Below, one piece after another: positions 55,039-55,470 of a DNA stretch of 64,000 nt. How positions within the stretch are numbered: position 1 is the first letter of the stretch; every line of letters begins with the position of its first letter. The notes beneath the pieces were generated by a model. That model worked only from the letters and a program-made list of their open reading frames with translations, did no database searches and was not told the DNA's origin. Made by a program: the position numbers and the translations under genes. This DNA is from an uncultured Myxococcales bacterium (GTDB lineage Bacteria > Myxococcota_A > UBA9042): positions 27,586-91,585 of the forward strand of contig CAJBNH010000033.1 of NCBI GenBank assembly GCA_903955385.1, written 5' to 3'.

Positions 55039-55470
55039 CTAGCCGCGCTCGATCTTCTCGACGGCCAGCTCGAGCTCTTCGACGTTCACGTCGGTGCCCT
55101 TGCCGTCCAAGGTGAAGCCCTTCCACTTGGTGGGCCATCCCTCGAAGAAGTTGTAGCGCATGACCTCGGACCCGTCGTCCGCGCACAGGATGATCGATCC
55201 CGCCTTGCGCTCAACCTTGCCCTCGATGACCTTCTTGCGCCAGTCCCACAGCTCGACGTTGTTCACGTAGCCGCGCTTCAGGGTGACGTTGCTGTACTTG
55301 GTGCGACCCGGGCGCTTGCGCAGCACCATGTCGTCACCGTCCTGGAACTCGACAACCTCGGTCTCGGAGTCGAGACCTTCCACGTTGCGGAAGGCACCCT
55401 GGGTCACGCCTTCGATTTCCACCTTGAAATTGAAATTGCCGATGTGGTCAAAAGGACGACGATTAGGCAT
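55039..55470 (-). CDS. Phage-tail-tube-like protein (T4 gp19 / Afp1 / Pvc1 family, PF06841-like)
   Basis: 143 aa. …FNFKVEIEGV…FRNVEGLDSETEVVEFQDGDD…KRPGRTKYSNVTLKRGY…ELWDWRK fits the conserved pattern of the gp19/Afp1 tube family. Recognised from memory of family consensus; not run against a database. Confidence 0.7.
   Translation of the reverse strand: MPNRRPFDHIGNFNFKVEIEGVTQGAFRNVEGLDSETEVVEFQDGDDMVLRKRPGRTKYSNVTLKRGYVNNVELWDWRKKVIEGKVERKAGSIILCADDGSEVMRYNFFEGWPTKWKGFTLDGKGTDVNVEELELAVEKIERG

Follow-up and report, generated by a model that had tools for sequence, protein, structure and literature searches.

An isolated Afp1-type tube gene of uncultured Myxococcota is probably a relocated core eCIS component supplied in trans

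The closest described relatives of the gene analyzed here encode the tubes of well-studied contractile systems, namely Afp1 of Serratia, Pvc1 of Photorhabdus, Cis1 of AlgoCIS (7adz) and All3324 of the thylakoid-anchored CIS of Anabaena (7b5h). Like the protein described below, they are PF06841 proteins of 140-150 aa, and in these systems the tube gene is located in the operon. eCIS are generally treated, and also computationally detected, as compact operons that include the tube gene, and the operational definition of an eCIS locus by Geller et al. 2021 (PMC8213781) is based on many core genes lying close together. In Vibrio cholerae the T6SS is organized differently, as its Hcp genes are found in auxiliary clusters 1 and 2, outside the large structural cluster (PMC6691524). 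For uncultured marine Myxococcota, mostly UBA796, an Afp/PVC-like eCIS has been reported as a "PLTS-like cluster" (PMC11937823). According to this report, the tube is "often linked" to the sheath, the PF06841 tube is the most highly transcribed gene in situ in some uncultured Myxococcota MAGs (again mostly UBA796), and confident models of related tube proteins resemble 7aeb and 6j0b. Our literature search on eCIS operons without afp1/cis1 and on orphan eCIS tubes returned nothing specific.

The window, which is the complete 64-kb stretch of DNA analyzed here (G+C content 66.8%), contains one gene of this type with the following features in and around it:

53771-54853, minus strand: gene for a 360-aa protein with a lipoprotein-type N-terminus and without a Pfam match, 185 nt downstream of the tube gene
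54928-54975, minus strand: intrinsic terminator located 63 nt past the stop codon; its 17-bp stem (54975-54938) runs into TCTTTTTGCG
55039-55470, minus strand: cis1/afp1-type inner-tube gene, 143 aa, intact, with ATG start and TAG stop
55471-55759, minus strand: leader and presumed promoter region, common to the divergent ppx
55479-55482, minus strand: Shine-Dalgarno sequence GGAG, 8 nt before the ATG, read from the sequence
55486-55498, minus strand: leader stem-loop GCCCCGTCGGGGC (GCCCC-GAC-GGGGC, 5-bp stem and 3-nt loop), 3 nt upstream of GGAG
55760-56764, plus strand: Ppx/GppA gene (Pfam scan), divergent from the tube gene

The preliminary description of this locus had placed the 143-aa product in the gp19/Afp1-like tube family and had proposed an HMM search with PF06841 as a check. 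This search gave a strong match of 136.9 bits (cut-off 28.2; E 4.7e-40) over the whole model (positions 2-134 of 134), which confirms the placement, and TIGR02241 was matched with 118.1 bits (cut-off 62.4). The NCBIfam models CIS1_fam and CIS5_fam scored 56.6 and 79.9 bits, which is below their equivalog cut-offs of 220 and 260. Judged by these matches, the protein is a typical gp19/Afp1-family tube that falls outside the narrowly defined CIS1_fam and CIS5_fam equivalogs. It has no match to the Hcp domain (PF05638), its gene is not part of a vgrG, PAAR or effector island, and PHROG gave only a weak tail-tube match (3e-6). An AlphaFold2 model, computed from a shallow alignment in which all rows are at least 79% identical, reached a mean pLDDT of 48.8 and was discarded because of this low quality.

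The solved main-tube chains nearest by sequence are those of AlgoCIS (7adz, 9e-19), Anabaena All3324 (6e-17), Pvc1 (2e-13) and Afp1 (8e-9), and the adaptor chains Pvc5 (2e-3) and All3323 (4e-6) score weaker. In related operons the products of the tube-1 genes, which directly follow sheath 1, are 83-90% identical to the window protein (74-90% across the in-operon copies kept in the genome scan below), and those of tube2, which also belongs to PF06841, only 23-37%. As the protein is closer to main-tube than to adaptor chains and its gene is orthologous to the tube gene beside sheath 1, we assign it the putative role of a main tube (Afp1/Pvc1/Cis1) and not that of an adaptor (Afp5/Pvc5/Cis5). In this respect the gene resembles afp1, pvc1 and cis1, as its orthologue in the related Myxococcota operons adjoins a sheath gene.

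In the window itself no such sheath gene is present. A Pfam scan of about 45 ORFs, which covers practically every credible ORF of the window, revealed housekeeping functions only, including hsp90, nadA, nadE, malQ, ppx, aat, putA, cytochrome bd and Ser/Thr kinases, and ppx, malQ, nadE, the lipoprotein gene and aat are the neighbors of the tube gene. Sheath, Pvc16, F2, Afp7-like and F7 queries from related operons (tblastn against the 64 kb) found nothing apart from the tube gene. Thus, the lipoprotein gene and ppx are confirmed as the neighbors named earlier, and the earlier statement that no injection-system gene lies within ±8 kb was even too cautious, because Pfam and tblastn detect none besides the tube gene in all 64 kb. 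The tube gene is therefore an orphan within at least 64 kb. Under the definition of Geller et al. the window holds no eCIS locus, since sheath, baseplate, spike and Afp16-type genes are absent near the tube gene. PHROG likewise gave no phage structural neighbors that would indicate a prophage tail module, and the window contains no tRNA genes. The single phage-like gene is an 855-aa ORF (60056-62623, plus strand) 4.6 kb from the tube gene, which has no Pfam match, but matches phrog_29234 (3e-58) and a DNA polymerase/primase family (3e-20); together with the small ORFs that follow at 62805-63900 and have no matches, it may mark the border of an integrated mobile element beside nadE.

To see how the gene is arranged elsewhere, one genome per GTDB species was scanned, which yielded 257 relatives, and the best 80 of these (71-100% identical) were kept. 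Nearly all of these 80 belong to uncultured Myxococcota, organisms that are also represented in data sets from stratified lakes and from Lake Mendota. Arrangements were called by clustering of neighboring ORFs, Pfam on one operon and a tblastn check. In 37 of the best 80 of 257 loci, the gene comes first among the tube genes of a conserved eCIS operon with the following order:

tube-bearing operon: F5 - Pvc16_N - sheath1 (about 388 aa) - tube (143 aa) - F2 (123 aa) - sheath2 (about 590 aa) - tube2
tube-bearing operon, continued from tube2: protein of 1250-2100 aa - Afp7-like protein (CIS_tube and LysM) - F7 - further genes - gp25

In mean pairwise identity across operons, sheath1 (85%), tube1 (82%) and F2 (80%) are the most conserved components, and tube2 reaches 44%. 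F2 (for example L207, 11365-11736) always follows the tube position, has 123 aa, matches no Pfam family and represents an uncharacterised core part of this Myxococcota eCIS type. A few close relatives carry odd taxon labels, such as Acidimicrobiia (L080, DATHZQ01), Methanothrix (L059), Sterolibacterium (L003) and, in several cases, Enterobacteriaceae/Klebsiella; mis-binning or mislabelling of contigs is a more likely reason for this than gene transfer.

A further 43 of the best 80 of 257 loci carry 44 orphan copies in at least 22 unrelated genomic contexts, and several genomes have two to three orphan copies each. These copies are strictly monocistronic and have no recurrent partner, vgrG or PAAR. 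The arrangement around the window gene (L001, contig JBMOIG010000006.1 of MAG JBMOIG01, GCA_049317445.1) is shared, among these best 80 of 257 loci, only with L002, the syntenic orthologue in a sister species (98% aa identity). The best 80 of 257 loci represent 74 species-level genomes, of which 37 have only in-operon copies, 37 only orphan copies and none both, the "orphan only" class resting partly on absence in incomplete MAGs. At 74-90% identity to the query, in-operon copies would rank within the 80 loci kept. This exclusivity implies that orphan-bearing genomes either have no eCIS or have an operon in which the tube gene is missing.

Operons of the latter kind were indeed found. A metagenome scan with a sheath-1 profile revealed two loci (L087 and L119) in which sheath 1 and F2 are separated by only about 200-250 nt that hold no tube gene. 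We then traced the contigs of ten sheath-1 proteins of orphan-bearing lineages, using homologues of the L087 sheath, and an adjacent tube gene was absent in all ten cases. Seven of these sheaths (P0001, P0004, P0007, P0019, P0025, P0041 and P0043) are encoded in an otherwise intact operon, and for the remaining three (P0013, P0023 and P0027) the cluster breaks off right after sheath 1. In three MAGs a tube-less operon could be paired with orphan copies in the same genome:

tube-less operon: (Pkinase) - SurE - phosphoribosyltransferase - MopE-like protein in some loci - Pvc16_N - sheath1 - spacer of 59-420 nt - F2 - sheath2 - tube2 - large protein
MAG CAZPHC01: tube-less operon L161/L207; orphans L018 and L025
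MAG CAZJHX01: tube-less operon L187; orphan L031
MAG JBEARB01: tube-less operon L196; orphan L011 (sheath RIT45_4087, tube RIT45_2148)

JBIKTV01 and L176, which derive from one and the same sample, probably make up a fourth pair. The operon of CAZPHC01 runs on through the Afp7-like gene, F7 and the gp25 baseplate gene and is therefore canonical except for the missing tube gene. No remnants of a tube gene were found in the sheath1-F2 spacers of the tube-less operons. For JBMOIG01 and its sister CAYURO01, a tube-less operon was not among the contigs of the ten traced sheath-1 proteins.

Several further observations were made at these and neighboring loci. At the L165, L203 and P0027 places of lake Myxococcota, Pvc16_N and sheath1 are followed by Y1-transposase-like, toxin-antitoxin or GDPD/GST genes, and the eCIS cluster seems to be split there into at least three loci. 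At the same places and at L184, a Cys-rich protein of 1000-1300 aa with Cu-binding_MopE repeats is encoded between the phosphoribosyltransferase gene and Pvc16_N; its gene occurs in several tube-less loci, is absent from others, and could be an accessory or cargo gene. Arrays of the hexanucleotide GGCTCC/CCGGAG fill the sheath1-F2 spacer of L190 (6183-6602) and L191 (3488-3632) as well as the tube-F2 spacer of L003 (about 900-1100), and the array length differs between assemblies of the same sheath protein. A different eCIS group (L090, L091, L095, L099, L105, L110, L113, L123 and L126) has a sheath 1 that is about 70-77% identical and a sheath1-F2 distance of 1.1-1.3 kb; L091 encodes at 6876-7877 a 333-aa protein with two PF06841 stretches, apparently a tandem-fused tube.

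Based on these results we consider the window gene to be a relocated core component of an eCIS that is supplied in trans, with a probability of about 0.78, whereby the tube-less operon in the window's own MAG is inferred from the relatives. The preliminary description had offered three options for the isolated gene, a remnant, a component of a distant eCIS locus or a domesticated gene, and the tube-less operons beside orphans in the three related MAGs favor the second one. It had also named an eCIS locus elsewhere without its own tube gene as the observation that would turn the orphan into a relocated component, and exactly this was found in CAZPHC01, CAZJHX01 and JBEARB01. The orphan status holds within the window, but true orphanhood probably does not, as the operons of related genomes lack precisely this gene.

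The strongest competing explanation is a domesticated tube, in which the eCIS has been lost from the window genome and the protein has been kept for a CIS-independent role, for example as an abundant Hcp-like ring or chaperone. The 64 kb without another CIS gene, the strong purifying selection on the tube gene described below, the operon not located for the window's MAG and the visible breaking up of the cluster in some relatives would all fit such a loss. However, every orphan-bearing MAG with a traceable sheath contig has an otherwise complete operon that lacks only the tube, and the window protein has the length and sequence typical of in-operon tubes and no added domain, so that we regard domestication as unlikely. 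It is even less likely that the gene is an additional paralogue that raises the dosage beside an operon that still contains cis1. The tube subunit is required in high stoichiometry, and the genomes with two to three orphan copies would agree with a need for dosage, but the absence of any genome with both in-operon and orphan copies among the 74 considered (best 80 of 257 loci) speaks against it.

Additional evidence for independent units comes from the sequences that flank the orphan copies. The hairpin that had been noticed earlier in the presumed 5' UTR proved to be real and far above chance, and it recurs with compensatory changes at the orphan copies of other genomes. The usual leader of an orphan copy has a GC-rich stem of 5-7 bp with a 3-nt loop, which ends 10-20 nt before the ATG and directly before the Shine-Dalgarno sequence; GCCCC-GAC-GGGGC, GGCCCTC-GAA-GGGGGCC, ATTCCT-GAA-GGGAAT and ACCCCT-GAC-GGGGGT are examples, and GGAG or GAGG is found at the equivalent place in nearly all tube-gene copies. 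Using a strict definition (triloop at -10 to -20), the hairpin was present at 23 of 44 orphan copies, but only at 3 of 33 in-operon copies and at 50 of 747 control genes of the same loci (Fisher p 2e-14). A loose definition (any 5-bp stem) was rejected as non-discriminating, since 56% of the control genes have such a stem. Covariation was analyzed in a MAFFT alignment of 22 mutually related copies chosen from the main orphan clade; a second orphan clade is without the canonical triloop. In this alignment 85.7% of the stem cells are paired, and the pair 12-24 occurs as GC (10), CG (8), AU (2), UA (1) and UG (1) and is never broken. The covariation score of 0.544 has to be compared with 0.211±0.03 for shuffles, of which 0 of 500 reach this value, and with at most 0.19 for slid registers, and RNAalifold independently predicts the identical stem. 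Taken as a whole, the 96-nt leader has a stability like shuffled sequence (z 0.2) and only the small hairpin stands out. We assume that the stem-loop is probably an mRNA-stabilizing or translation-tuning element.

The 300 nt upstream of the tube gene are 91% identical between the window and L002, which is above the value of about 70% at the synonymous sites of the tube ORF. A scan of the ppx-tube intergenic region for a sigma-70 consensus gave no match; a weak candidate recognized by eye, TTGTCC-17-TACATT, is conserved in L002. Sigma-54-like motifs seen by eye upstream of a few other orphan copies did not fit the consensus spacing and were discarded. A second hairpin, TCCCG-N7-CGGGA, is located about 40 nt upstream of the triloop (within 55471-55759 of the window). 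The 15-bp palindrome mentioned in the preliminary description (ACGCGAAATTCGCGT, 55636-55650, 7+1+7) does exist, but its palindromy is lost in L002, the closest orthologous locus, and it is therefore probably incidental.

On the downstream side, the terminator listed above lies between the tube gene and the lipoprotein gene and had previously been overlooked. Its stem is kept in L002, and similar terminators composed of a hairpin and a T-run follow most orphan copies. This is important for the idea of an Hcp-style orphan that is tied to a neighboring cargo or effector, for instance the lipoprotein. The lipoprotein gene, for which Pfam gave no match, follows the tube gene after 185 nt in the same orientation, and orphan hcp islands are well known in T6SS. 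Yet the strong terminator separates both genes, the lipoprotein gene is a neighbor of the tube gene only in L001 and L002, and the unrelated contexts of the orphans, at least 22 in number, share no recurrent partner, vgrG or PAAR. The terminator and the lack of a recurrent neighbor led us to reject a functional tie to the lipoprotein, and we consider any link of this kind very improbable.

The coding sequence itself is under strong constraint. A comparison of the window gene with L002 revealed a dS of 0.39 and a dN of 0.014 (dN/dS 0.034), and the dN/dS of other orthologous and paralogous orphan pairs ranges from 0 to 0.17. Some orphan positions are kept across species (L014/16/17/19/21/34 and L027/29/32), and the identical tube protein was found in the same synteny in many independent assemblies. 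The possibility that the gene is a decaying remnant of a lost prophage or eCIS, to which its isolation among housekeeping genes might point, is the least probable of all and is refuted by the selection analysis, with an intact ORF, a dN/dS of 0.034 over a dS of 0.39, a conserved leader, Shine-Dalgarno sequence and terminator, and an identical protein in many assemblies. The window gene thus appears to be neither a remnant nor a stray paralogue. Dispersed paralogues within one genome have ORFs that are 94-98% identical at the DNA level, although their flanks are at the level of shuffled sequence, a combination that points to gene conversion or to very strong selection acting on the coding sequence. 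With tufA and tufB, a case is known in which the duplicated genes of an abundant protein stay nearly identical. The dispersed orphan copies of the tube gene resemble this pair, but strong coding selection could give the same picture as gene conversion.

Phylogenetic trees give an indication of how often the gene has moved. In the sheath tree, P0001-P0041 form one clade without any tube-bearing operon, and P0043 is placed elsewhere beside the tube-bearing L022. In the tube tree, most orphans form one derived clade, and L031 and its allies group with the in-operon tube of L022. These concordant trees imply at least two independent relocations of the tube gene. L001 and L002 have a basal position in the main orphan clade and could therefore differ from the MAGs with verified tube-less operons. 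In L003 a spacer of 317 nt separates the C-terminus of sheath 1 from the triloop hairpin, after which the tube gene and F2 follow. The L003 tube nests among the orphans, and this locus looks like a pre-relocation intermediate.

Taken together, the relocation of a core component would have proceeded as follows. In the ancestral state, the tube gene would have been located directly after the first sheath gene of a chromosomal eCIS operon. In the lineage of the window genome, it was presumably copied out, after which the operon lost its copy. The machine would now receive its tube subunit in trans from monocistronic genes, one to several in number, that are dispersed over the genome. Each of these orphan units would carry a separate promoter region and an intrinsic terminator, with a GC-rich stem-loop right beside the ribosome-binding site. 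By analogy with Afp, PVC and AlgoCIS, hexameric tube rings would stack on the baseplate and on an initiator or adaptor (Afp7-like protein and tube2) inside the polymerising sheath, with the Pvc16-like terminator forming the cap. The benefit is probably an independent and very high expression of the most abundant subunit. The top expression of the tube gene in some uncultured Myxococcota MAGs, as reported from metatranscriptomes, fits such an advantage of an independent, strong and sometimes multi-copy unit with a leader stem-loop (PMC11937823), and the split architecture gives context to this published observation.

It is conceivable, but in our opinion rather doubtful, that a large planktonic clade of uncultured Myxococcota has gone further and has converted the compact operon into a dispersed regulon of Pvc16-sheath1, orphan tubes and the rest. 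The tube would then have been amplified, gene-converted and driven by the stem-loop because it is consumed or released in bulk like Hcp, or because it has a second, machine-independent role.

The protein family and the eCIS were already known, and the difference lies in the architecture, i.e., a core tube gene that is recurrently located outside its operon, dispersed and duplicated. In contrast to Afp, PVC, AlgoCIS and the Anabaena CIS with their tube gene in the operon, the Myxococcota orphan tube lies outside a tube-less operon and can be multi-copy. The orphan-tube eCIS is probably the same system as the cluster described in PMC11937823, whose accessible account contains no mention of tube-less operons, dispersed tube copies or the leader hairpin. 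As in V. cholerae (PMC6691524), the tube subunit is encoded away from the sheath and baseplate cluster, in more than one copy and in trans. Unlike the Hcp of T6SS (PF05638), which is found with vgrG, adaptor and effector genes, the orphan tubes belong to PF06841, are monocistronic and have unrelated neighbors.

Surveys based on operons would score these split systems as incomplete and their tube genes as stray "phage tail proteins", because the most abundant subunit is encoded elsewhere, often in several copies, in an arrangement that has arisen at least twice. Furthermore, the covarying stem-loop beside the ribosome-binding site is a concrete candidate for an expression element. Finally, the parallel with the hcp genes outside the T6SS cluster suggests that there may be a general pressure to uncouple the supply of the tube from the rest of the machine.
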